Part shown: piece after piece, positions 1 to 14,932 of the stretch
How the letters are laid out: each line of letters starts with the position of its first letter
How positions within the stretch are numbered: position 1 is the stretch's first letter
Assembly: GCA_017656425.1 (NCBI GenBank)
Contig: JACDNV010000006.1
Coordinates: forward strand, 42,542-106,541
DNA: 64,000 bases
From: Fidelibacterota bacterium
GTDB taxonomy: Bacteria; Fidelibacterota; UBA2242; B5-G15
Direction: 5' to 3'
Notes under the pieces: generated by a model
The model's input: the letters and a program-made list of their open reading frames with translations, nothing else
The model's database searches: none
What the model was told of the DNA's origin: nothing
Position numbers and translations under genes: made by a program

Positions 1-61
1 AAACCGAATTATTTGTTTTATTTTTGTTTCTGTAAATAATAATTTTTTATGACTTACGGAA

Positions 62-697
62 ATGAAATATTTAGAGTTTAAAAATGCGGTTAGGGAGTTC
101 CCCATAATATCATCCACCCATATTTTTAATATCAATAAGGGCACTCGGACTCTTAAAACCCAGTTAGTCGGATGGCAAAAGAAGGGTTTAGTTATCAAAT
201 TGAAGAGAGGGCTATACATTTTAAATGAGCGGGACAGGAAACATGAACCGTCCAGAATATTCCTTGCCAATGCCCTATATTCACCATCTTATGTGAGTAC
301 AATTTATGCCCTGGGTTACTATGATTTAATTCCTGAAAAGGTGGTTGATGTTACATCAGTTACTACCAAAAAGACTACGAAATTTACAAATCCTTTTGGT
401 ACCTTCATTTATCAGCACTTGAAAACCAATTTATTTTTTGGTTTCAAAGAGATTGAAGATGAAAATGGTTTTCCTGTTCTTATTGCAGAGCCAGAAAAGG
501 CAGTGCTTGATTTCATTTACTTAAATTTACAGGATTTTAAAAGTAAAAATGAGGATGTCTTCAGTCTCTCATACAGGTTCCAAAATTTAGATATACTGAG
601 AAGGAGATACCTTGTTGATTTTGCTAAAAAATACGAAAACAAGGAAATGCTTGATGTAGTAGAAAATTTATTAAGCTTTATGAAAGAAGAGAGATAA
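62..697 (+). CDS. AbiEi-family type IV toxin-antitoxin antitoxin-like protein (N-terminal wHTH)
   Basis: 211 aa. N-terminus has the pattern ...LVGWQKKGLVIKLKRGLYIL typical of AbiEi wHTH. It lies 4 bp upstream of an AbiEii-like nucleotidyltransferase gene. Confidence 0.55.
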   Translation: MKYLEFKNAVREFPIISSTHIFNINKGTRTLKTQLVGWQKKGLVIKLKRGLYILNERDRKHEPSRIFLANALYSPSYVSTIYALGYYDLIPEKVVDVTSVTTKKTTKFTNPFGTFIYQHLKTNLFFGFKEIEDENGFPVLIAEPEKAVLDFIYLNLQDFKSKNEDVFSLSYRFQNLDILRRRYLVDFAKKYENKEMLDVVENLLSFMKEER

Positions 698-700
698 TTT

Positions 701-1513
701 ATGCTTGATTTAATAAAGCGAAGTATCAAAGGCATTCCAGACAGTGAGATGAAAGTTCACATCACCAGAGAATTTTTGCAATTACTTATATTAAAGATTA
801 TTTCCGATAAAGATTATTTTAAGAATCTCGCCTTTGTTGGGGGAACAGCATTGAGATTTCTTTATAGCCTAAGGAGATTTTCAGAAGACCTCGACTTTTC
901 ACTGATTAATAAAGAAGGTTATAAATTTGAGAGTTTTTTGGGAAAAATTACTTATGAATTAGAAAAATATGGCCTTTCTGTAGAGATTAAGAAAAGTGCA
1001 AAAGAACCTGTCCAATCCGCCATGGTTAAATTTAAAGATATTTTGTATCTTTTAGGATTATCCAGGCAAAAGGGCCGAAGACTTTCAATTAAGCTTGAAA
1101 TAGACTCAAATCCACCTGTGGGTTGGAATACAGAGCTTTCTTTAGTGAATAAGCATTTTGTTTTTACAGTCCTACATTTTGATATTCCCTCTCTTTATGC
1201 TACAAAGATTCATGCCTGTTTTTTTAGAAAATACATTAAAGGAAGGGACTTTTATGATCTCATATGGTACTTTGGGAAAAAGGCTATGCCTAATTTTGAG
1301 CTTCTCAATAATGCCATAGAGCAGACAGAAAAAAAGAGAATGGATTTAAATGCGAAAAATTTTAATGATTTTTTAAAAGAAAGATTAATAGGTATCGATT
1401 TTGCAAAAGTAAGGAAAGATGTAGAGAGATTTATAGAGGACAAGAACGAACTCAAATTATTGAACAGGGATGTGATTTTAAAACTTCTGAATAAAGAGTT
1501 GATGAGTTTATGA
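701..1513 (+). CDS. AbiEii/AbiGii-family nucleotidyltransferase toxin
   Basis: 270 aa. Carries the motif FVGGTALRFLYSLRRFSEDLDFSL (GGTAL...RFSEDLDF hallmark of AbiEii/DUF1814) and is coupled to the upstream AbiEi-like gene. Its C-terminal tail ELMSL* is encoded by the first GAGTT repeat array. Confidence 0.75.
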   Translation: MLDLIKRSIKGIPDSEMKVHITREFLQLLILKIISDKDYFKNLAFVGGTALRFLYSLRRFSEDLDFSLINKEGYKFESFLGKITYELEKYGLSVEIKKSAKEPVQSAMVKFKDILYLLGLSRQKGRRLSIKLEIDSNPPVGWNTELSLVNKHFVFTVLHFDIPSLYATKIHACFFRKYIKGRDFYDLIWYFGKKAMPNFELLNNAIEQTEKKRMDLNAKNFNDFLKERLIGIDFAKVRKDVERFIEDKNELKLLNRDVILKLLNKELMSL

Positions 1514-1550
1514 GTTTATGAGTTTAGGAGTTTAGGAGTTAGAGTTGGAG
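1496..1550 (+). repeat. GAGTT-core 7-8-nt tandem micro-repeat array, direct orientation
   Basis: Sequence gagttgat gagtttat gagtttat gagtttag gagtttag gagttag agttggag. It overlaps the AbiEii stop codon and ends 12 bp before the livH start. Confidence 0.9.
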
Positions 1551-1562
1551 TATTAATAAGAG

Positions 1563-2461
1563 ATGATACAACAACTAATAGTGAATGGAATTATTGCAGG
1601 AAGCATTTACGGCTTAGTCGCTATTGGATTCACAATTATTTACCGCACGGTTAAATTTTTTCATTTTGCCCATGGGGTGGTTTATACAATAGGGGCTTAC
1701 CTTGCTTACACTTTTATTAACTCACTAACCCATCAACTCCCAAACTCATTAACTGTTTATATAACCTCTTTTCTTCTATCCGTAATCCTTGCTGCTATTC
1801 TTGGAATCGCTATTGATAGATTAGTCTATTATCCTCTCCGACGGCAGAATGCATCAAATCTGATTTTTCTCCTTGCCTCATTCGGTGTTTTTATCTTTCT
1901 TCAGAATCTGATTCAACTCATATACGGGGCACAAATTCTCACGATTAGAACTGGACCCATAAAAGAGGGACACCATTTCCTTGGTGCAGTGATTACCGAT
2001 ATTCAAATCTTAATACTGGTGGTTTCCATCATTCTTATGATACTGCTCTGGTTCTTTATTCAGAAGACAAAACTAGGTAAGGCAATGAGGGCTGTTTCGG
2101 ATGATCCTTTAGCAGCAAATTTGTCGGTATAAATCCTGAAAAGATAATCATGTCCTCATTTGCTATTGGTTCTGCCCTGGCTGGTGCTGCTGGAATACTT
2201 ATTTCTTTTGAAACCAATATTGAACCCACCATGGGATTTAGTGCTCTTCTGAAAGGTATTATTGCCTCTATTATTGGTGGGATTGGCAGTATCCCTGGAG
2301 CTGTGCTTGGTGGATTCTTTCTTGGACTGGTTGAGAACCTTGGTATCTGGAAGATATCTGCTGGATGGAAGGATTGTATTGCGTTTGTAATACTCATAAT
2401 CTTTCTATTGATAGGACCATGGGGTTTATTGAGTAATAAAACGGAGAAATTGAGTTTGTGA
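1563..2461 (+). CDS. livH: branched-chain amino acid ABC transporter permease LivH, split by an apparent -1 frameshift near 2121-2125
   Basis: Track ORFs 1563..2132 (189 aa) and 2150..2461 (103 aa) together reconstruct one LivH-like permease, DDPLAANL|VGINPEKIIMSSFAIGSALAGAAG. The frames overlap at 2123; restoring one G in 'aatttg(g)tcggt' gives a continuous protein. Contains a 13-aa in-frame insert, SLTHQLPNSLT, encoded by the inverted repeat array. Confidence 0.8.
1718..1756 (-). repeat. GAGTT-core micro-repeat array, inverted orientation, in frame inside the livH N-terminal coding region
   Basis: Plus strand reads ttaactcactaacccatcaactcccaaactcattaactg; the reverse complement is GAGTTTGG GAGTTGATGG GTTAGT GAGTTAA. 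Together with array 1496-1550 it brackets the livH start. Confidence 0.8.
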
Positions 2462-2597
2462 GTTTGGGAGTTTGTGAGTTTGTGAGTTTGTGAGTTTGGG
2501 GGTTTGTGAGTTGGTGAGTTATGGAGTTAGGAGTTAGGAGTTAGGAGTTAGGGAGTTTAGGAGTTTAAGAGTTTAAGAGTTTAGGAGTTAGGGAGTT
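2452..2597 (+). repeat. GAGTT-core 7-8-nt tandem micro-repeat array, about 19 units, direct
   Basis: Units are (GAGTTTGT/GAGTTTGG)x7, then GAGTTAG x4 and GAGTTTAG/GAGTTTAA variants. It begins inside the livH C-terminus (EKLSL*) and ends exactly at the ATG of the four-helix-bundle gene. Confidence 0.95.
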
Positions 2598-3005
2598 ATG
2601 GCGAAAATAGAAAAGTTTGAAGATATTGAGGCCTGGCAAAAGGCAAGAAGTTTAGTTAAAGAAGTTTATAGAGTTTGTGGATTTGAGAGATACAAAAAAG
2701 ATTATAATCTTATTGATCAAACGAGAAGCTCTGCAATTTCAATTATAGCTAACATTGCAGAAGGTTATGCCAGACGAACAAATAAAGAATTTATAAATTT
2801 TCTTGGAATGGCACATGCTTCAGCAGCAGAGCTTCAATCACATCTTTATGTCGCTTTAGATCAGAGGTATATTTCTGATCAGGATTTTAGGATCATTTAT
2901 TCATTAGCAGATCAAGTTTCTAAAATGATCCAGGGCTTTATTACTTACTTGAAAAACTCCCAAACTCCAAAACTCAAGAACTCTCAACTCAAAAGGAAAA
3001 ATTAA
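2598..3005 (+). CDS. four-helix-bundle protein of the '23S rRNA intervening sequence protein' / DGR Avd family (PF05635-like)
   Basis: 135 aa. Residues EDIEAWQKARSLVKEVYRV...RSSAISIIANIAEGYARRTNKEFINFLGMAHASAAELQSHLYVA match the family consensus (W.kA..L....y......e.y.L..Q.rRaa.Si..NIAEG..R....ef..FL..A.gS..El.t.l..a). The C-terminal tail KNSQTPKLKNSQLKRKN is encoded by the inverted repeat array. The stop overlaps the livM ATG (TAATGG). Confidence 0.75.
   Translation: MAKIEKFEDIEAWQKARSLVKEVYRVCGFERYKKDYNLIDQTRSSAISIIANIAEGYARRTNKEFINFLGMAHASAAELQSHLYVALDQRYISDQDFRIIYSLADQVSKMIQGFITYLKNSQTPKLKNSQLKRKN
2953..2993 (-). repeat. GAGTT-core micro-repeat array, inverted orientation
   Basis: Plus strand reads aaaactcccaaactccaaaactcaagaactctcaactcaaa; the reverse complement is GAGTTGA GAGTTCTT GAGTTTTG GAGTTTGG GAGTTTT. 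This is the inverted partner of array 2452-2597 on the other side of the four-helix-bundle ORF. Confidence 0.85.
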
Positions 3006-3874
3006 TGGAACATTTACTTCATATATTAGTAATCGCTGGAATATACATCATCTTGACTCTGAGCCTTAATCTCATTGTTGGATATACAGGACTGCCTGCA
3101 CTGGGTCATGCAGCCTTTTCCTGCATTGGTGCGTATACGTCGAGTCTGCTTGCGCTGTATATTGGGGTATCCCCATGGATAGGATTATTGATAGGGGGAT
3201 GTTTGGCAGCTCTGTCAGGCATTATAATAGGATATCCTGCAGTACGATTAAAAGGGGATTATCTTGCTCTGGCAACATTCGGGATGGGAGTTATTGTTTA
3301 CTCCATCGCTAAGAACTGGGTATCCCTTACAAGGGGTCCAATGGGACTTCCCGGAATCCCCGGGTTTTCTATTTTTGGTATCCAGCTATCAGAGATATGG
3401 TCTTACCTGCTTCTGGTTTCGGTTTTTGTGGCAATTACCATATTTGTTATTAACAGGATAGTAAATTCTCCATTTGGCAGGATACTTCGGTCTATCAGAG
3501 AGGACGAAATTGCCTCAGAGGCTTTAGGAAAAAATACAACCAAATATAAACTCCTGGTTTTTATTATCGGAGCATTCTTTGCTGGTATTGCTGGAAGCCT
3601 TTATGCTCACTACATAACCTTTATTGACCCTTCAAGCTTCACTGTTATGGAATCCATAACCATTCTTCTTATGGTTATCTTTGGAGGAATGGGGAGCATA
3701 TCAGGTTCTATAGTGGGAGCAGTGGTTTTGGTAGTATTTCCTGAACTTTTGAGATTTCTTGGAATGCCGTCTTCAATCGCAGCGCCTATGAGGCAAATGA
3801 TATATGGATTGTTGCTCGTATCTCTTATGCTTAAAAGACCTCAGGGAATAATGGGGGTTTATAAGTTTAAGTAA
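3005..3874 (+). CDS. livM: branched-chain amino acid ABC transporter permease LivM
   Basis: 289 aa polytopic permease with LivM-like sequence (…NLIVGYTGLPALGHAAF…GYPAVRLKGDYLALATFG…), located between livH and livG. Confidence 0.85.
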   Translation: MEHLLHILVIAGIYIILTLSLNLIVGYTGLPALGHAAFSCIGAYTSSLLALYIGVSPWIGLLIGGCLAALSGIIIGYPAVRLKGDYLALATFGMGVIVYSIAKNWVSLTRGPMGLPGIPGFSIFGIQLSEIWSYLLLVSVFVAITIFVINRIVNSPFGRILRSIREDEIASEALGKNTTKYKLLVFIIGAFFAGIAGSLYAHYITFIDPSSFTVMESITILLMVIFGGMGSISGSIVGAVVLVVFPELLRFLGMPSSIAAPMRQMIYGLLLVSLMLKRPQGIMGVYKFK

Positions 3875-3910
3875 GTTTTTGAATTTATGAGTTAATGAGT
3901 GATGAGTTAT
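3863..3910 (+). repeat. degenerate GAGTT/AAGTT micro-repeat array, direct
   Basis: Sequence aagtttaagtaagtttttgaatttat gagttaat gagtgat gagttat. It spans the livM stop and the livG start. Confidence 0.6.
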
Positions 3911-4708
3911 ATTTTGCGAATAAAAAATCTTGTTAAGGAGTTTGATGGATTAAGGGCGGTAGATGACCTATCCTTTGATATTAAGAGAAATACTATCACT
4001 GCATTGATTGGACCGAATGGTTCAGGTAAGACCACTGTGTTTAACATAATAAGCGGTTTCTTAAAGCCAGAAGGAGGCAAGGTTATTTTTCAACTCAATA
4101 ACTCATCAACTCATGAACTCACAAAACTTAGTCCTTATAGAATAGCCAGACTGGGTATTTCGCGGACATTTCAGAATATCAGATTATTCCCCCAGATTAC
4201 GGTAATGGAAAATATGTTACTTTCGACCAGATATGAGAAGGGTGAAGGACTCATACCTGCACTTCTCCAGTCAAAGATCATGAAGGATGAGGAACGGAGA
4301 AATAGAGAAAAGGACATGGGATATCTTGAATTGGTAGGTCTTACTGATAAGAAAGATGAGCTTGCACAAAATCTATCGCATGGACAGAGAAGATTGCTTG
4401 AGTTAGCACGGGCACTGGCAACAGAAGCAGAACTCTTTTTACTGGATGAACCGACAGCAGGTGTCTTCCCAAATATGAGAATTAAGATTCTGGATGTGCT
4501 TGAGAAATTAAAAACCAAAGGCAAGACTATCCTACTCATTGAGCATGATATGAAGGTAGTGACAGGGATTTCCGATAATGTAATTGTGTTGAATTACGGT
4601 CAAAAGATTGCTGAAGGGCCTCCAGAGGTGGTAACCAGAGATGAGAGGGTTATAGAAGCCTATCTTGGCAAGAAAAGGAGTTCGGGAGTTGGAGAGTTCA
4701 GGAGTTGA
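3899..4708 (+). CDS. livG: branched-chain amino acid ABC transporter ATP-binding protein LivG
   Basis: Walker [10 protein letters not shown], signature [15 protein letters not shown], Walker [10 protein letters not shown]. 3899 is a GTG start; the first ATG is at 3902. Carries an in-frame repeat-encoded insert [17 protein letters not shown] before the conserved RIARLGI. The C-terminal tail GVGEFRS* is also repeat-encoded. Confidence 0.85.
4091..4128 (-). repeat. GAGTT-core micro-repeat array, inverted, in frame inside livG
   Basis: Plus strand reads caactcaataactcatcaactcatgaactcacaaaact; the reverse complement is GAGTTCATGAGTTGATGAGTTATTGAGTTG. Confidence 0.8.
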
Positions 4709-4714
4709 GGAGTT
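4677..4714 (+). repeat. GAGTT-core micro-repeat array, direct
   Basis: Sequence ggagttcg ggagttg gagagttca ggagttga ggagtt, overlapping the livG stop 6 bp before the livF ATG. Confidence 0.85.
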
Positions 4715-4719
4715 AAAAA

Positions 4720-5496
4720 ATGAACTATAATCAAAAAAAATTTGATAATAAATTTCTAACTCAAAAACTCACTAACTCAAAAACACATTTAACTCTTTTA
4801 GAAGTAAAAAACTTAACAGTACATTACGGCTCTGTCCTCGCTCTGGATGATATTTCTCTCTCTGTCAATGGGGGAGAAATTGTGGCAATGATAGGTCCGA
4901 ATGGTGCTGGAAAATCTACAGCTTTAAAGGCAATTTGTGGTCTTGTAAAATCCACATCAGGAGAAATCTTATTTCAGGGAGAAGATATAAATGGCAATCA
5001 GCCATATCAACTGGTTGAGAAAGGATTATGCCTTGTGCCAGAAGGAAGACGAGTTTTTACTTCAATGACTGTTTTAGAGAATTTGGAGATGGGAGCTTAT
5101 ACCAGAAATGATAAAAATATTCAGGAAGATATTGATAGAGTATTTACTTTATTTCCTGTTCTCAAGAAAAGACAGAAACAGAGAGCAGGAACATTGAGTA
5201 GTGGAGAACAACAGATGCTTGCTATTGGCAGGGCACTGATGCTAAAACCAAAACTGCTTTTATTAGATGAACCATCACTGGGACTTTCTCCAAATTATAT
5301 GGAAACTGTATTTGAAAAGATAAAAGAAATTAACAAAGAGGGAACTATAATTCTCCTCGTGGAGCAGAATGCCAGGATGGCTCTGGAATATGCTGATAGA
5401 GGCTATGTATTTAAAATAGGCAAAATTGCTTTTGAGGATAATGCAAAAAACCTCCTTGAAAATGATGAAATTAAACAGTCATTTTTAGGAGGATAA
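4720..5496 (+). CDS. livF: branched-chain amino acid ABC transporter ATP-binding protein LivF
   Basis: Walker A GPNGAGKST, signature LSSGEQQMLAIGRAL, Walker B LLLDEPSLG, plus the canonical LLEVKNLTVHYG start motif. An unusual 27-aa N-terminal extension contains repeat-encoded LTQKLTNSKTHLTL. Confidence 0.85.
   Translation: MNYNQKKFDNKFLTQKLTNSKTHLTLLEVKNLTVHYGSVLALDDISLSVNGGEIVAMIGPNGAGKSTALKAICGLVKSTSGEILFQGEDINGNQPYQLVEKGLCLVPEGRRVFTSMTVLENLEMGAYTRNDKNIQEDIDRVFTLFPVLKKRQKQRAGTLSSGEQQMLAIGRALMLKPKLLLLDEPSLGLSPNYMETVFEKIKEINKEGTIILLVEQNARMALEYADRGYVFKIGKIAFEDNAKNLLENDEIKQSFLGG
4757..4795 (-). repeat. GAGTT-core micro-repeat array, inverted, inside the livF N-terminal extension
   Basis: Plus strand reads ctaactcaaaaactcactaactcaaaaacacatttaactc; the reverse complement contains GAGTTAG GAGTTTTT GAGTTAG. 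Paired with 4677-4714 around the livF start codon. Confidence 0.8.
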
Positions 5497-5622
5497 ATTA
5501 AGAAAAATATTTATCATACTTTTAAAAAGTAAAGGGAATAGAAAGACACCATAAACTTGTAGATTCAAGTATATAACCAAGGACATTTATATAAATTTTA
5601 GTAAGAAGTAGGTGTAGAGGTT

Positions 5623-5874
5623 TTATCTATTATAATTGAAATAGAATTGGTAGGATGAAGCTTTAACAAGGAAATCTTTTACTGAGCTGAATGATTCTAT
5701 GCAGTAGAATTCGTCTTCGATTAATCTGTGAGAGGATTCTACATTGGCATTAGCATTGGGGTAATGTGTCCGTAGGATCCCTAATCGGGATAGGTTATGT
5801 TTTTTACTTATCTTTGATTCTTTTCCCAAAAATCTCACAGAGAATAGCCAGTCAATGGGGTATGGTCTTATCAC
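5623..5874 (-). pseudogene. C-terminal remnant of a DDE (rve-type, IS3/IS481-like) transposase/integrase
   Basis: Only 83 aa, starting at a GTG. The sequence ...LRTHYPNANANVESSHRLIEDEFY...SFSSVKDFLVKASSYQFYFNYNR resembles the end of the rve core domain (R.h.P..NG.vER.hRtlkeEf....F.s..el...l..y..YN..RPH). There is no N-terminal catalytic region. Confidence 0.45.
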
Positions 5875-6094
5875 TCATTACCCTCAATTTAATCAATTCT
5901 ATTGTACCATTATATGCATGAAATTTTCAGAAAATGGATAAAAAATATTTTGATTTTTGAAGTATTTTTTATTATACTTAAAAAGTAACATAAGAGAAGT
6001 AAATGCGTCAGGTTCATGTTCATAAGGGTAATTCGGGCGGAATTAGGGATTATTTTTTGTATGATCCTTTTCTAACAAATAATAATGAGAAAAT

Positions 6095-6484
6095 GTGATT
6101 AAATTTATGAATAATAAACAGTTAACAATTAACGAGCGAAATGAATTAGGTAGCCATGAAGAGCAACTTTTGCTTTTTTCATTAGTACCCCCTAATTTTA
6201 TGTTAGCCGATCGAAATAGTGGAGGATATGATATGAAAAGATGTTATGAATTGAAGAATTGTGGAATGGACAAGAAGTCCCCAGAAGAAGGTAGTTGTCC
6301 AGCCTATGCATCAAGTACAGATTGCTGGTACTATGACTGGGAATCCTTCTGGAAAGAGATGGCAGATGGTCCAGAAAAGGAAGAAGGAAAGAAGGGAATG
6401 TTAGCTGACTGCTCTTCTTGTCCGGTGAGAGAAGTACACAAAGAGGAAGTGGATCTGTTCATGTCAAAGGTTCGTCAAGTGTAG
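6095..6484 (+). CDS. hypothetical Cys-rich small protein (six Cys, possible metal-binding)
   Basis: 129 aa with spacing C-x5-C-x11-C-x8-C ... C-x2-C. No recognised family. It is the first ORF of the island. Confidence 0.3.
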   Translation: MIKFMNNKQLTINERNELGSHEEQLLLFSLVPPNFMLADRNSGGYDMKRCYELKNCGMDKKSPEEGSCPAYASSTDCWYYDWESFWKEMADGPEKEEGKKGMLADCSSCPVREVHKEEVDLFMSKVRQV

Positions 6485-6613
6485 AGTGGTTGATCTGAAT
6501 GTACCGAAGAGTAGCAAATGACGGCTAACAACGCCATGCACCCTGACGCGAATTCCGCTGCGCTCCATTCCCGCCGGTGATGGCGACATTATGTTGCTAC
6601 GTGTAGCTGATAG

Positions 6614-12216: not shown

Positions 12217-12903
12217 TTATTTAATTTTTTGCATTATTATTAAATACTTAAATCCTCTTAAATAGAAATTATACTTTTTAGCTCTTTGATGCCAGATGGG
12301 AGTATTTGAAGTCTGATTATGTCTTGCCACACAGACAATATCTACTGGTTTAAAATATTTTTCGAGAATAGAGTACATCTTAAATCCTACTGGTACAAAT
12401 ATTTTCTTTTTTGCTTGATCTCCAATAAGCCAAGCAATATACTTTCCTTTCTTTAAAATTCGATGTGCTTCTTTTGCAACCTTATCTAATTCTTCGAAAA
12501 ATCTGGGATTTTCACAAGAAATATTACCAATATTGTCTGGGCGGTCATTGTACCTAATGTTGTCTGAATAAGGTGAATCTATAAAAACAAAATCTGCTAC
12601 CCCGTTCTTTAATGGTAATCTTCTAGCGTCGGCTTGTTTTATATCCTTCCTATAAGGAACAATATCAAAACCTAAAACCTTTCGTTTTTCCTCTTTGCAA
12701 ACATCAATAGTAGTTCCACTCCCACACATTGGATCTACTACTAATTCACCTTCTTTGGTGTATCTCTGAATTAAATTCCAAATAACGAATGCAGGAGTTA
12801 CTCCTCTATATTTATTGTCTCCGTGAGGTCTATTACCATAATTTTGTGTTGGATAGTCCCAAAGAGTTGTGGTTTCAAATGGAGGCTTATTATTATTTCT
12901 CAT
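12217..12903 (-). CDS. DNA methyltransferase (N6-adenine or N4-cytosine), R-M methylase 1
   Basis: Motif I VVDPMCGSGTT and motif IV FIDSPY ((D/S)PPY-type). First gene of a three-gene M-R-M operon on the minus strand. Confidence 0.8.
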   Translation of the reverse strand: MRNNNKPPFETTTLWDYPTQNYGNRPHGDNKYRGVTPAFVIWNLIQRYTKEGELVVDPMCGSGTTIDVCKEEKRKVLGFDIVPYRKDIKQADARRLPLKNGVADFVFIDSPYSDNIRYNDRPDNIGNISCENPRFFEELDKVAKEAHRILKKGKYIAWLIGDQAKKKIFVPVGFKMYSILEKYFKPVDIVCVARHNQTSNTPIWHQRAKKYNFYLRGFKYLIIMQKIK

Positions 12904-13579
12904 TCTCCAGTAATTTTTTTAGATCATCAATGAAATGTTCAAAGAGTTTTACTTTATCACTTTCCTCAACTTCTTCATCAGTTAAAACATAACTTCCATC
13001 TAGATCTATCTCAACGATAGCTCTCCCTTTTTTAGGAGGAACTTTTCGTGTTAGAGTTCCATCTTCATCAGGGGTAATGAAGTAAACTTTAACGTGTTCG
13101 GTTGCTCTATCCTGTGAAAGTTTAAGCTTCCAATAACCTGTTTGGGCAATCCGTTCTCTCAAGGTCACCTTACTTGAAATAGCAGCCAAAACCTTACAAT
13201 TCTCTGGATTATAAATAATTATATCAACATCTGGTAGATGCAAGCCAAATTCACCATAATCAATTGCTAAGTTCCTTTTCACTTGACTCAGCTCTTTAGA
13301 TAAATTTATTGTTCTTTCTAATTTATTTCCATTAACAACTTTTAACCCAAGTTCTTCAACTTCATCAGTAATAATATATTGAACTAACTTTTCTAGATTT
13401 TTACCCTTAAATGCTCTCCAGCTTTGTTCATGATCTCCATTTGGGGTAGGATTCTTTAACCAGTCTTGTCTATGAATCTCTTTTGCTTCTTTTAATAATT
13501 CCGAAATATGCTTGTATGCGTTTACTCCAAACTTCTTTTTTTTCTTTAAATATAAATTCTTTAAATCTTCGAAATTCAT
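12893..13579 (-). CDS. putative Type II restriction endonuclease
   Basis: 228 aa ORF translationally coupled between two methyltransferase genes (overlap at 12893-12903, 4-bp gap at 13579/13583). Possible PD-(D/E)xK-like segment LPDVDIIIYNPENCK. No strong family match by eye. Confidence 0.4.
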   Translation of the reverse strand: MNFEDLKNLYLKKKKKFGVNAYKHISELLKEAKEIHRQDWLKNPTPNGDHEQSWRAFKGKNLEKLVQYIITDEVEELGLKVVNGNKLERTINLSKELSQVKRNLAIDYGEFGLHLPDVDIIIYNPENCKVLAAISSKVTLRERIAQTGYWKLKLSQDRATEHVKVYFITPDEDGTLTRKVPPKKGRAIVEIDLDGSYVLTDEEVEESDKVKLFEHFIDDLKKLLENEK

Positions 13580-13582
13580 TTT

Positions 13583-14932
13583 TTACTCCTTTAAGCCAAT
13601 TATAATATATTCAAAGGGGTAGGCTTCTGAATTTGCTTTATCATTATTAGCAAATCTCCCTGTCTTTTCATCCCTTTTTTGAGGAAGTATTTTTAGGGGG
13701 ATTTCCCTTTTTATGATTTTATCCAATTTAAACCCTGAATATTGTAAACTCTCTGAAAAAACTTCAGCATTTAAAATGCTTATACCTTTCAATACAGTAT
13801 TACCAATTACATAGCAACATCGTCCCCCTCTTTTTAAAATCCTATAACTTTCATCAAATACATCTTGCATATCGATAAAAAAAGTCTCGATCTCTTTAGC
13901 CATCTTTTTACTCTTTTGCTTCATTTTATCAACGATATTTTTAGCTATAATACTTTTCAATTTTCTCTTTTCTGAAAGCTTGTAAGCAGAACCAATGAAC
14001 TTTTTTTTATATGCCGTCAAATTATCTGCAAAATCCAACCAGATAGTAGAAAGTTGATGTAAATCAGCGTATTCATAGCTGGTTACATAAGGACTTGAGC
14101 TAACAATTAAATCTACACTATTATCCTCAACAGGCTGTTTTTTAGCATCTTGTGCTTTTATGTTTAAATATTTTATTAGATTTTCTCTAACCTCTTGAGG
14201 CACTACTTTATAAAATTCTTCATTCCCCTTTTGCATCTTTTTTAAATGTCTTCTAAACACTTCCAATGGATCGGCAGGCTTTTTTTTTAAATCTCTTGTA
14301 GGTTTAGTGCTTCCTTGAAGCCATATAGAACAATTCTTTAAAATATGACTAAAAGCTATTAATAAGAAATCTCTTATAATTTCGTCATATTCTTCGTAAA
14401 TTACCCTCAAAATTTTCCCCAATTCAATTTTGTTTTTTTCATCAAACCAATAATTTATTCTTTCGATATGTCTTTCTGGAATTAATGGAGTAATATCTTT
14501 AGAAAATAGTCCAGATAGTCTAATTAAAGTCCGTTCTATTTTCTTTTCTAGATAATTAGGATCAATTGGTGTAGACTTTACCTTTGTCATTAAATAAGCT
14601 ATTTTATTTATGTCCGTTCCACTTGCTTTAAATCCTCTCGAGATAGCAGTAACAATTGTCGTTCCACTACCCATAAAAGGATCATTAATATGAGCATCTT
14701 TAGTAGTTATATATTCATCAATTAACCTTTCTACCAATTGAGGAATAAATTTTGCTGGATATCGATGATAACAATGTGTCCATTTACCTGTATCTTTTGG
14801 TTTTAATTCATTAAAGGACCAACTCTTATCAATTTGTAATTCTCTAAAAAGCTGCAAAATATCTGTATGGTTAAAATAATTAACTTGAGATGTTAGCATT
14901 TCATTTCGTTTTATTTCGCTCACTAGTTTCAC
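13583..14932 (-). CDS. DNA methyltransferase (N6-adenine or N4-cytosine), R-M methylase 2
   Basis: Motif I INDPFMGSGTT and motif IV IVSSSPY with a long spacer (target-recognition domain). 14932 is a GTG; the first ATG (MLTSQ...) is at 14896, so the true start may be 14896. Confidence 0.8.
   Translation of the reverse strand: MKLVSEIKRNEMLTSQVNYFNHTDILQLFRELQIDKSWSFNELKPKDTGKWTHCYHRYPAKFIPQLVERLIDEYITTKDAHINDPFMGSGTTIVTAISRGFKASGTDINKIAYLMTKVKSTPIDPNYLEKKIERTLIRLSGLFSKDITPLIPERHIERINYWFDEKNKIELGKILRVIYEEYDEIIRDFLLIAFSHILKNCSIWLQGSTKPTRDLKKKPADPLEVFRRHLKKMQKGNEEFYKVVPQEVRENLIKYLNIKAQDAKKQPVEDNSVDLIVSSSPYVTSYEYADLHQLSTIWLDFADNLTAYKKKFIGSAYKLSEKRKLKSIIAKNIVDKMKQKSKKMAKEIETFFIDMQDVFDESYRILKRGGRCCYVIGNTVLKGISILNAEVFSESLQYSGFKLDKIIKREIPLKILPQKRDEKTGRFANNDKANSEAYPFEYIIIGLKE

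Follow-up and report, generated by a model that had tools for sequence, protein, structure and literature searches.

A PF05635-family gene between complementary tandem-repeat arms in the liv operon of a Candidatus Marinimicrobia genome: a probable selfish cassette with satellite arrays

The 64-kb stretch of a Candidatus Marinimicrobia genome analyzed here (contig JACDNV010000006.1; the whole stretch is hereafter the window) carries a plus-strand liv operon whose gene junctions are marked by eight short-period tandem arrays with a GAGTT core, four direct (+) and four inverted (-), and whose livH-livM junction is occupied by a gene of the PF05635/TIGR02436 family. We consider it probable that this gene and its two complementary arms form a promoterless selfish cassette and that the six other arrays are its satellites. 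Downstream of an AbiEii toxin gene (701-1513; PF08843, E 8.8e-27), the operon comprises, all on the plus strand, the permease gene livH (1563-2461), the cassette gene (2598-3005), the permease gene livM (3005-3874; Pfam assignment), and the ATPase genes livG (3902-4708; Pfam assignment, also called as a gene in the Logan assembly L001) and livF (4720-5496). PF02653 matches both pieces of livH, which a 1-nt deletion near 2121-2128 splits into open reading frames (ORFs) 1563-2132 and 2150-2461 by creating a TAA at 2130-2132. As livH is intact (294 aa) in the close relative L210, the deletion is either strain-specific, leaving a pseudogene, or a sequencing error.

The arrays are far too numerous to be chance. 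From dinucleotide-preserving shuffles, 0.11 matches to GAGTTNNNGAGTT are expected (2 at most in a single shuffle); the window has 31, all of them within 1496-4795 and 0 in the other ~59 kb; a 7-nt-spaced variant of the same pattern adds four matches where shuffles predict 0.10. Tandem Repeats Finder (TRF) reports arrays of period 8, locally 7, at all eight places (+ arrays at 1496-1540, 2452-2597, 3887-3909, and 4676-4714; - arrays at 1716-1754, 2953-2983, 4090-4121, and 4756-4787), and short-period tandem repeats cover 11.7% of positions 1400-4900 versus 0.5% of 5500-64000. Along 1496-4795 the orientations alternate strictly (+ - + - + - + -), which gives four direct/inverted pairs. The units, written here as (GAGUUNNN)n and (GAGTTNNN)n, are heterogeneous rather than identical. 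An earlier note on this DNA, made from the letters alone, had described eight GAGTT arrays in inverted pairs with the direct arrays lying across upstream stop codons; the match counts, TRF, and the alternation bear out the first point, and the second holds at all four places (1511-1513, 2459-2461, 3872-3874, and 4706-4708). The inverted arrays are translated in frame. Stop-codon content would explain the division of labor: stop codons crowd every frame of G/T-rich arrays, which would thus be found only at gene ends, whereas A/C-rich arrays stay open, encode hydrophilic N-S-x-T-x-x-L-x peptides, and would for that reason be tolerated inside genes.

Pair 1 begins with a direct (GAGTTNNN) array of ~7 units at the AbiEii/livH junction (1496-1550, + strand), which supplies the last five codons (ELMSL) and the stop of the AbiEii gene. 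It is identical in L210 and absent 5' of livH in relatives L202, L206, and L208. The inverted AACTC array of the pair (1718-1756, - strand) lies in frame in the LivH loop that follows the second hydrophobic segment and lengthens it by 7 aa (peptide NSLTHQLPNSLT); by sequence comparison this insert is absent from L124, L128, L202, L206, L208, and L212. Pair 2 comprises the cassette arms. Its direct array, the 5' arm (2452-2597, + strand; 18 units), covers the livH stop, reaches the ATG of the cassette gene, and holds a Shine-Dalgarno (SD)-like AGGGAG at 2590-2595, while its inverted array, the 3' arm (2953-2993, - strand; 5 units), encodes the C-terminal tail of the cassette protein, KNSQTPKLKNSQLK.

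The direct array of pair 3 (3863-3910, + strand) is degenerate, with only two exact GAGTT cores, and amounts to a ~35-nt insertion at the site of a former livM/livG ATGA overlap. The livM stop and the start of livG (ATG 3902) both fall inside it, and it is better preserved in L210, L211, and L212. Within livG, the inverted array of the pair (4091-4128, - strand) replaces 27 native nt (RNKRIINLP) by 42 nt in frame; it is present in L122, L128, L210, L211, and L212 and absent from L123, L124, L202, L204, L206, and L208. Finally, pair 4 is a contiguous, ORF-less hairpin of ~125 nt (4677-4797, + strand), delimited by alignment of filled and empty junctions, with a + arm at 4677-4714, a 42-nt loop at 4715-4756, and a - arm at 4757-4795. 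It replaces the native overlap of livG stop and livF start, with ~8-22 nt of the native junction lost. The + arm provides the LivG tail SSGVGEFRS and its stop, the loop provides a new livF start (ATG 4720), and loop and - arm together give LivF a 26-aa N-terminal extension that includes the peptide LTNSKTHLTL. Orthologous copies of pair 4 occur in L210, L211, and L212, and a decayed one in L128.

These assignments modify several details of the earlier note. Of the repeat-encoded tails that it gave to liv cistrons, GVGEFRS does belong to LivG but ELMSL to the AbiEii protein. The inverted arrays, placed by it 30-60 codons inside the downstream genes, are in frame as stated, but that of livF is at codons 13-26. 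Its picture of arrays at liv junctions with inserts in LivH, LivG, and LivF stands, except that pair 2 encloses a PF05635 gene: because ORF 2598-3005 belongs to that family, the array at 2953-2993 is the tail of the cassette protein and not an insert in a Liv protein.

The product of ORF 2598-3005 (135 aa) matches PF05635 (E 7e-34; 116.6 bits, cutoff 33.8), TIGR02436 (112 bits, cutoff 24), the Xanthomonas S23p-family structure PDB 2GSC (E 1.4e-12) and, weakly, PF22296, which has the homologous four-helix-bundle fold of Avd. It is a four-helix-bundle "23S rRNA intervening-sequence protein" and not a Liv protein. The ORF is the sole member of PF05635/TIGR02436 in the 64 kb, and all eight arrays surround it. 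Homologues end in C-terminal tails of a similar NSQTPKL type. The window protein alone matches more than 1000 clusters, and the family is spread over many phyla; to our knowledge, its biology has so far been limited to the rRNA intervening sequence (IVS) and to kinship with the Avd protein of diversity-generating retroelements (DGRs). A DGR with an Avd accessory gene was considered and rejected because no reverse transcriptase domain occurs among the window ORFs between 62 and 43474 or in the gene table covering 6 kb upstream of the cassette gene in L001, the ORFs scanned. The octamer arrays are the sole repeats observed, no search aimed at template/variable repeat pairs having been made. A phage origin was likewise rejected, as only one relative was found among 2.9 million viral contigs.

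Relatives with empty sites reveal the operon as it stands without these insertions. In L202, L203, L206, L208, L209, and L213, whose LivM proteins are 88-92% identical, there is neither cassette nor array, and the operon is compact: livM starts 4 nt past the livH stop, livM and livG share an ATGA, and livG and livF overlap. Filled relatives are L122, L123, L124, L128, L210, and L212. Because the empty-site relatives have no arrays, every array in the window is a lineage-specific insertion. Nucleotide comparison with the empty sites shows that at pair 2 the cassette, together with its two arms, has been inserted after the livH stop and before the livM ATG, and protein alignments agree with the nucleotide comparison on the Liv inserts, whose lineage specificity had been predicted correctly.

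Arrays gain and lose units between near-identical strains. The direct array of pair 2 has 18 units in the window, ~13 in L210, 8 in L212, and 4 in L122, and one direct array in L124 reaches 38 units (~300 nt). In L210 (LivM 99% identical), pairs 1 and 4 are identical to those of the window and the livG array is displaced by one unit with the frame kept; L212 (LivM 92%) lacks the LivH insert, as noted above, and has other spacers in pairs 2-4. The content of the junctions also changes. At the livH-livM junction of L124 (1880-4356) and L220 (4411-6557), a PF01637-type ATPase gene stands between two tandem cassettes, the same layout surrounds a 222-aa ORF without a Pfam match in L221 (4311-6107), and in this group an AbiEii/AbiEi-like pair has entered the livM-livG junction. 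In L204, an unrelated family member (144 aa) is present at the livH-livM junction (~4495-5000); its repeats are of GAGAAC and GTCGG types, seemingly direct rather than inverted, and a different G/T-rich repeat (GGTTGTT; ~3700-3780) sits in the LivH loop that carries the AACTC insert in the window. The livH-livM junction has therefore been hit by at least two unrelated cassettes, that of the window and that of L204.

We also observed that contigs binned as Marinimicrobia, WOR-3, Acidobacteria, Aminicenantes, and Desulfobacterales encode LivM proteins with ~88-92% identity, a level that is unusually high across phyla and suggests either horizontal transfer of the operon or mis-binned contigs.

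The architecture recurs throughout the protein family. Across 80 metagenomic loci encoding relatives of the window protein, 69 of which were used for array counts, a 6-10-nt-period array lies within 120 nt upstream of the gene in 53/69, downstream in 59/69, and on both sides in 46/69. Tandem repeats cover 27% of the gene borders, versus 2.3% elsewhere in the loci and ~0.5% of cassette-free DNA. The two arms of a locus are complementary to each other (median local-alignment score 14.2, compared with 7.5 when arms are taken from different loci and 8.0 when far flanks are used; p 1e-20); this measure was used in place of RNAduplex arm energies, which were dropped because shuffled controls scored nearly as high. 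Arm polarity is consistent: 27 loci have a G/T-rich upstream arm and an A/C-rich downstream one, and 2 loci have the opposite arrangement (p 1.6e-6). Cassettes are co-directional with their neighbors (51/56 upstream, 45/54 downstream). Arm units vary by locus and include GAGTT, GAGTC, GGTTC, GTGTC, GCGTC, and TTGGT, among others. GAGTT arms are found in 13/21 loci with a protein at least 55% identical to that of the window but in 7/59 below that level (p 2e-5), i.e., unit type tracks protein clade, and gene and arms travel together. The architecture belongs to the protein family and not to GAGTT; GAGTT is no special unit, and other cassettes of the family are built of different ones.

Loci outside liv operons repeat the layout. 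Cassettes of the window clade with GAGTT arms lie between cas1 and cas2 in L125 (1833-2186) and between cas6b and cas1 in L126 (3971-4324). Likewise, L132 and L136 contain such cassettes inside CRISPR-cas operons, and compact extra GAGTT/AACTC hairpins adjoin the cas-operon cassettes. All four finished plasmids examined, from cultured Nostoc, Riemerella, Calothrix, and Geminocystis, show it too: a G-rich array extends to the ATG and the complementary array follows the stop codon, both built of units other than GAGTT. This finding rules out that the layout is an artefact of metagenome-assembled genomes (MAGs). Intergenic tandem heptamer arrays of Nostocales are described as dispersed repeats under the name short tandemly repeated repetitive (STRR) sequences, and the heptamer arrays that flank the Nostoc and Calothrix cassettes are of this general kind. 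We know of no description of STRR arrays as complementary arms around TIGR02436 genes.

Satellites are similarly widespread. In the window, all satellite arrays lie within ~1.8 kb of the cassette and take two forms, the compact ORF-less hairpin at livG/livF (pair 4) and separate arrays, of which the + ones lie at the AbiEii/livH and livM/livG junctions and the - ones in permissive loops of LivH and LivG. In the survey, 58/80 loci contain arrays more than 150 nt from the gene (173 in total), and these share 6-mers with the arms of their own cassette more than with foreign arms (mean 0.14 vs 0.04; p 1e-5). Satellites more probably arose as side products of local copying (slippage, template switching, or ectopic conversion) than as regulators designed by the host.

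The closest known system is the ORF-bearing IVS of 23S rRNA genes. In Coxiella burnetii, an S23p ORF lies in the loop of a 28-bp stem that is excised by RNase III, and strain-variable tandem heptamers precede its ATG; such elements, in Coxiella and Leptospira, are regarded as selfish and dependent on host transcription (PMC4990558). The window cassette resembles this IVS in that an S23p/PF05635 protein is encoded in the predicted loop of a stem formed by complementary flanks, with variable-number short tandem repeats directly 5' of the ORF (PMC4990558). It differs in its site, an mRNA operon junction (livH/livM) rather than helix 45, or helix 9 or 25, of a 23S rRNA gene; in its arms, which are long heterogeneous arrays (up to 146 nt) rather than a unique 28-bp inverted repeat; and in its satellites, which invade neighboring genes. 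By analogy, excision by RNase III may apply to the window element as well. No rRNA or other RNA family of Rfam matches positions 1-6500. We therefore favor, as the probable classification, an IVS-type cassette that resides in an mRNA operon and seeds satellites, IVS-like by gene family, stem, and upstream tandem repeats but not by location.

A second parallel is the hmw1A 5'-UTR of H. influenzae, in which a hairpin cut by RNase III has a heptamer array as one of its arms (PMC12721329). Both systems place a short-unit array of variable repeat number as a hairpin arm just 5' of a start codon. The hmw1A hairpin, however, has one array of identical units, paired with a non-repeat G-rich arm, and serves as a phase-variation device of the host without cassette gene or in-frame coding copies. 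The likeness to DGR Avd is limited to the homologous four-helix-bundle fold (PMC10053308), the window differing in the absence of a reverse transcriptase from the ORFs scanned.

From these parallels we propose how the cassette would be tolerated. It would be co-transcribed with the host operon, and its arms would pair into long stems; because the Coxiella IVS and the hmw1A hairpin are cut by RNase III, such stems are plausible and, by analogy, probable RNase III substrates (PMC4990558; PMC12721329). The G-rich 5' arm would offer SD-like sites that the stem masks, and G-rich 5' arms may be favored for the SD-like sites that they give a promoterless passenger. At pair 4, the livG stop (4706-4708) falls at the 3' end of the + arm, the AUG at 4720 is in the predicted loop, and the SD GAGGAG (4707-4712) is in the innermost predicted helix. 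A ribosome finishing livG would melt this stem and expose SD and AUG, which would restore the livG/livF translational coupling lost with the native overlap. A scan for promoters and terminators found promoter-like sites below the shuffle mean and terminator-like sites ~2 sd above it, none of them at an array.

Several observations weigh against a cassette that seeded the surrounding arrays. L211 (LivM 96%) keeps pairs 3 and 4 but lacks the cassette; its livH-livM junction (541-1329) holds an unrelated 262-aa ORF with no Pfam/NCBIfam match and no flanking arrays. Comparison of filled and empty sites places native coding sequence between the arms of pairs 1 and 3, which are thus not simple hairpin insertions. 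Most satellites elsewhere differ in unit type from the arms of their own cassette (median shared 6-mers, 0). Neither a transposase nor a target-site duplication nor any other mechanism of mobility was found. A family gene lies within ~8 kb of only 1 (L077) of the 120 GAGTT-array loci listed in the contig scan described below, so arrays can persist or arise without the gene in cis; a strict cis-link of every GAGTT array to a cassette gene is rejected on this count. On the RNA side, the window stems pair mainly through their 5-nt cores, spacer pairing in the window pairs (0.33-0.67) is at the chance level of unrelated arms (0.50), and an alignment of five pair 4 orthologues gives no covariation signal, although this five-copy consensus fold carries no information, given the shifting register of tandem arrays and three copies that are almost the same. 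Over 39 GAGTT-type pairs, spacer pairing is higher within a locus than across loci (0.67 vs 0.50; p 7e-4). The stems are therefore predictions, selection on which is at most putative; RNase III cleavage, co-transcription, coupling, and all other RNA-level functions are likewise predicted. The sample also has bounds, with 64 kb of the host genome covered and most relatives represented by short-read metagenome assemblies in which repeat lengths are unreliable.

An alternative that takes its strength from some of these points is an autonomous element akin to a miniature inverted-repeat transposable element (MITE), in which mobility belongs primarily to the ORF-less GAGTT/AACTC hairpin, mobilized in trans by some enzyme, and the four-helix-bundle gene merely rides as a passenger in one loop. 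We consider this unlikely. Pair 4 is indeed small, ORF-less, and inverted-armed around a 42-nt loop, a single contiguous insertion, and L211 retains pairs 3 and 4 without the gene. A contig scan for (GAGTTNNN)x5, with one genome per species, returned at least 120 loci, the matches listed coming from Bacteroidota, Cyanobacteria, Nitrospirota, Verrucomicrobiota, Chloroflexota, and other phyla. Among 120 loci listed, 15 have a strict inverted partner and no family gene, always in the order GAGTT then AACTC and with gaps of 2-1935 nt, and some of these are compact hairpins (L008, L038, L042, and L081). Precedents exist in Rickettsia palindromic elements (RPE), which insert in frame, and in the RNase III-cut Correia elements of Neisseria (PMC10969869; PMC2649163). 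Like pair 4, Correia elements are small ORF-less inverted-repeat sequences in operons that are co-transcribed and bound or cut by RNase III, but their terminal inverted repeats are defined, they show a target-site duplication, and their near-identical copies run to the hundreds, whereas the window arms are tandem octamers in locally clustered copies with no duplication seen (PMC2649163; PMC10969869). RPE are of similar size (~100-150 bp) and encode tolerated peptides in functional genes, but they form genome-dispersed families of conserved sequence that are not tandem arrays and have no link to a cassette gene (PMC10969869).

Against a free-moving hairpin, the alignment of filled and empty sites shows no target-site duplication at pair 4, the arms are heterogeneous tandem units rather than a defined terminal inverted repeat, pairs 1 and 3 enclose native sequence, unit type tracks protein clade, arrays are ~12-fold concentrated at gene borders, and no further copy of pair 4 occurs in the other 59 kb of the window. 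The idea of a small mobile repeat that tolerates in-frame insertion, raised in the earlier note, fits one pair (4677-4797) insofar as this is small, contiguous, and tolerated in frame, but not pairs 1 and 3, whose arms were inserted separately around native sequence. Nor are GAGTT arrays always in inverted pairs, given 15 strict partners among the 120 loci listed.

Some of the GAGTT loci have features of their own. In the Hymenobacteraceae isolates Pontibacter and Botryobacter (L036 2570-2640; L072 1760-2000), GAGTT/AACTC arms enclose nested repeats, namely an inverted "aatcct..ttcagacaatt" motif and other short tandem units in L072 and one copy of a closely similar motif in L036, which suggests composite multi-repeat hairpins. 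The longest array seen is an uninterrupted GAGTTNNN array of ~700 nt in Pseudoalteromonas sp. A601 (L074 4770-5454).

A host-designed regulatory RNA is quite unlikely. By this account, the inverted arrays evolved to place liv starts in stems for RNase III processing, translational control, or polarity. All four pairs are predicted to fold as start-enclosing stems: pair 1 (1485-1770) at -77.8 kcal/mol with z -4.5; pair 2 (2440-3010) at z -3.0, with 2455-2505 pairing with 2950-2995 in both the minimum-free-energy and the centroid structure; pair 3 (3850-4140) at z -2.6; and pair 4 (4665-4805) at z -3.9, a second fold of it giving z -4.7. Despite different spacers, L211 (z -2.6) and L212 (z -5.7) are predicted to form the pair 4 hairpin as well, and the repeat-armed, RNase III-cut hairpin of hmw1A does tune expression (PMC12721329). 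The supposition that each ribosome-binding site (RBS) and start codon sits in a stem loop thus has the predicted folds in its favor (z -2.6 to -4.5), except that the livM RBS and start lie downstream of, and outside, the pair 2 stem. However, many relatives with LivM 88-92% identical run the operon with overlapping genes and no arrays, the presence and position of arrays vary between relatives, and the hairpin is lost in L128, where pair 4 has decayed, and absent from empty sites (z about -1.3). Chance-level spacer pairing in the window and the lack of covariation point the same way, as does the presence of the same arrays on either side of an unrelated selfish gene and within cas operons. The free-standing, liv-specific regulatory design first imagined for these arrays is not upheld, since they cluster around a PF05635/TIGR02436 cassette and most relatives do without them.

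Ordinary slippage microsatellites acting as contingency loci, unconnected to the cassette, are very unlikely. Unit number does vary between near-identical strains, as between the window and L210, an 8-nt unit in coding sequence could switch reading frame, and many of the listed GAGTT arrays are plain and unpaired, with identical units (Legionella, Shewanella, Paenibacillus, and Undibacterium). The window units, however, are heterogeneous and their coding changes preserve the frame; strict alternation is, by direct count, one of 70 possible orders of four + and four - arrays; the arrays cluster round the sole cassette gene in 64 kb; and the both-sides layout and polarity seen across the family argue against coincidence. 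An artefact of MAG assembly or sequencing is hardly credible even though short-read assembly is prone to errors at tandem repeats and livH of the window is frameshifted, because arrays and cassette recur in the independent Logan assembly (L001), in JGI, ENA, and NCBI contigs of relatives from other samples, and in finished plasmids of cultured strains.

The surroundings of the operon are those of a defence-island-like region, with AbiE and restriction-modification genes in the window and SNF2/RadC upstream in L001. An AbiEi/AbiEii pair (62-1513) precedes livH, and a minus-strand restriction-modification cluster (12217-14932) has a BsaWI-like endonuclease gene (12893-13579) between two N6/N4 DNA methylase genes. 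In relatives, the stretch between a Peripla_BP_6 gene and livH holds different inserted genes in every case (L202, L204, L206, L208, and L213; ~1200-4100), including those for radical SAM enzymes, methyltransferases, and unknowns, so that the stretch 5' of livH looks like a hotspot of gene insertion. Beyond livF, a region of ~600 nt (5497-6094) has no + strand ORF of at least 50 aa save a short one, and no Rfam match.

Finally, a selfish cassette in one liv operon may be an instance of something broader. We tentatively raise the possibility that TIGR02436/PF05635 genes with complementary tandem-array arms constitute a widespread, undescribed class of promoterless mobile stem-loop cassettes that colonize operon junctions (liv, cas, and others) as well as 23S rRNA, that are nearly harmless because the arm stem allows excision or bypass at the RNA level, like an intron removed by RNase III, and that seed ORF-less hairpins and solo arrays in cis. 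In a stronger version, the Avd-like pentameric protein may itself direct the synthesis or copying of G-rich repeats onto DNA 3' ends, which would explain the 5' position of the G-rich arm on both strands. Neither non-rRNA cassettes with complementary tandem-array arms nor their satellites are described in the literature covered here, which is incomplete and so gives weak evidence of novelty.

The regular packaging of these genes between complementary arms, co-directional at operon junctions, yields a concrete model, open to testing, in which RNA-level processing makes a selfish cassette tolerable. Arm arrays and satellites would explain some intergenic tandem repeats, and satellites that enter essential genes in frame would account for a class of unusual low-complexity inserts, and of tails at the C or N terminus, among annotated proteins. 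For the liv operon itself, the locus would offer a natural system in which long-range mRNA stems replace translational coupling once overlapping genes have been separated.

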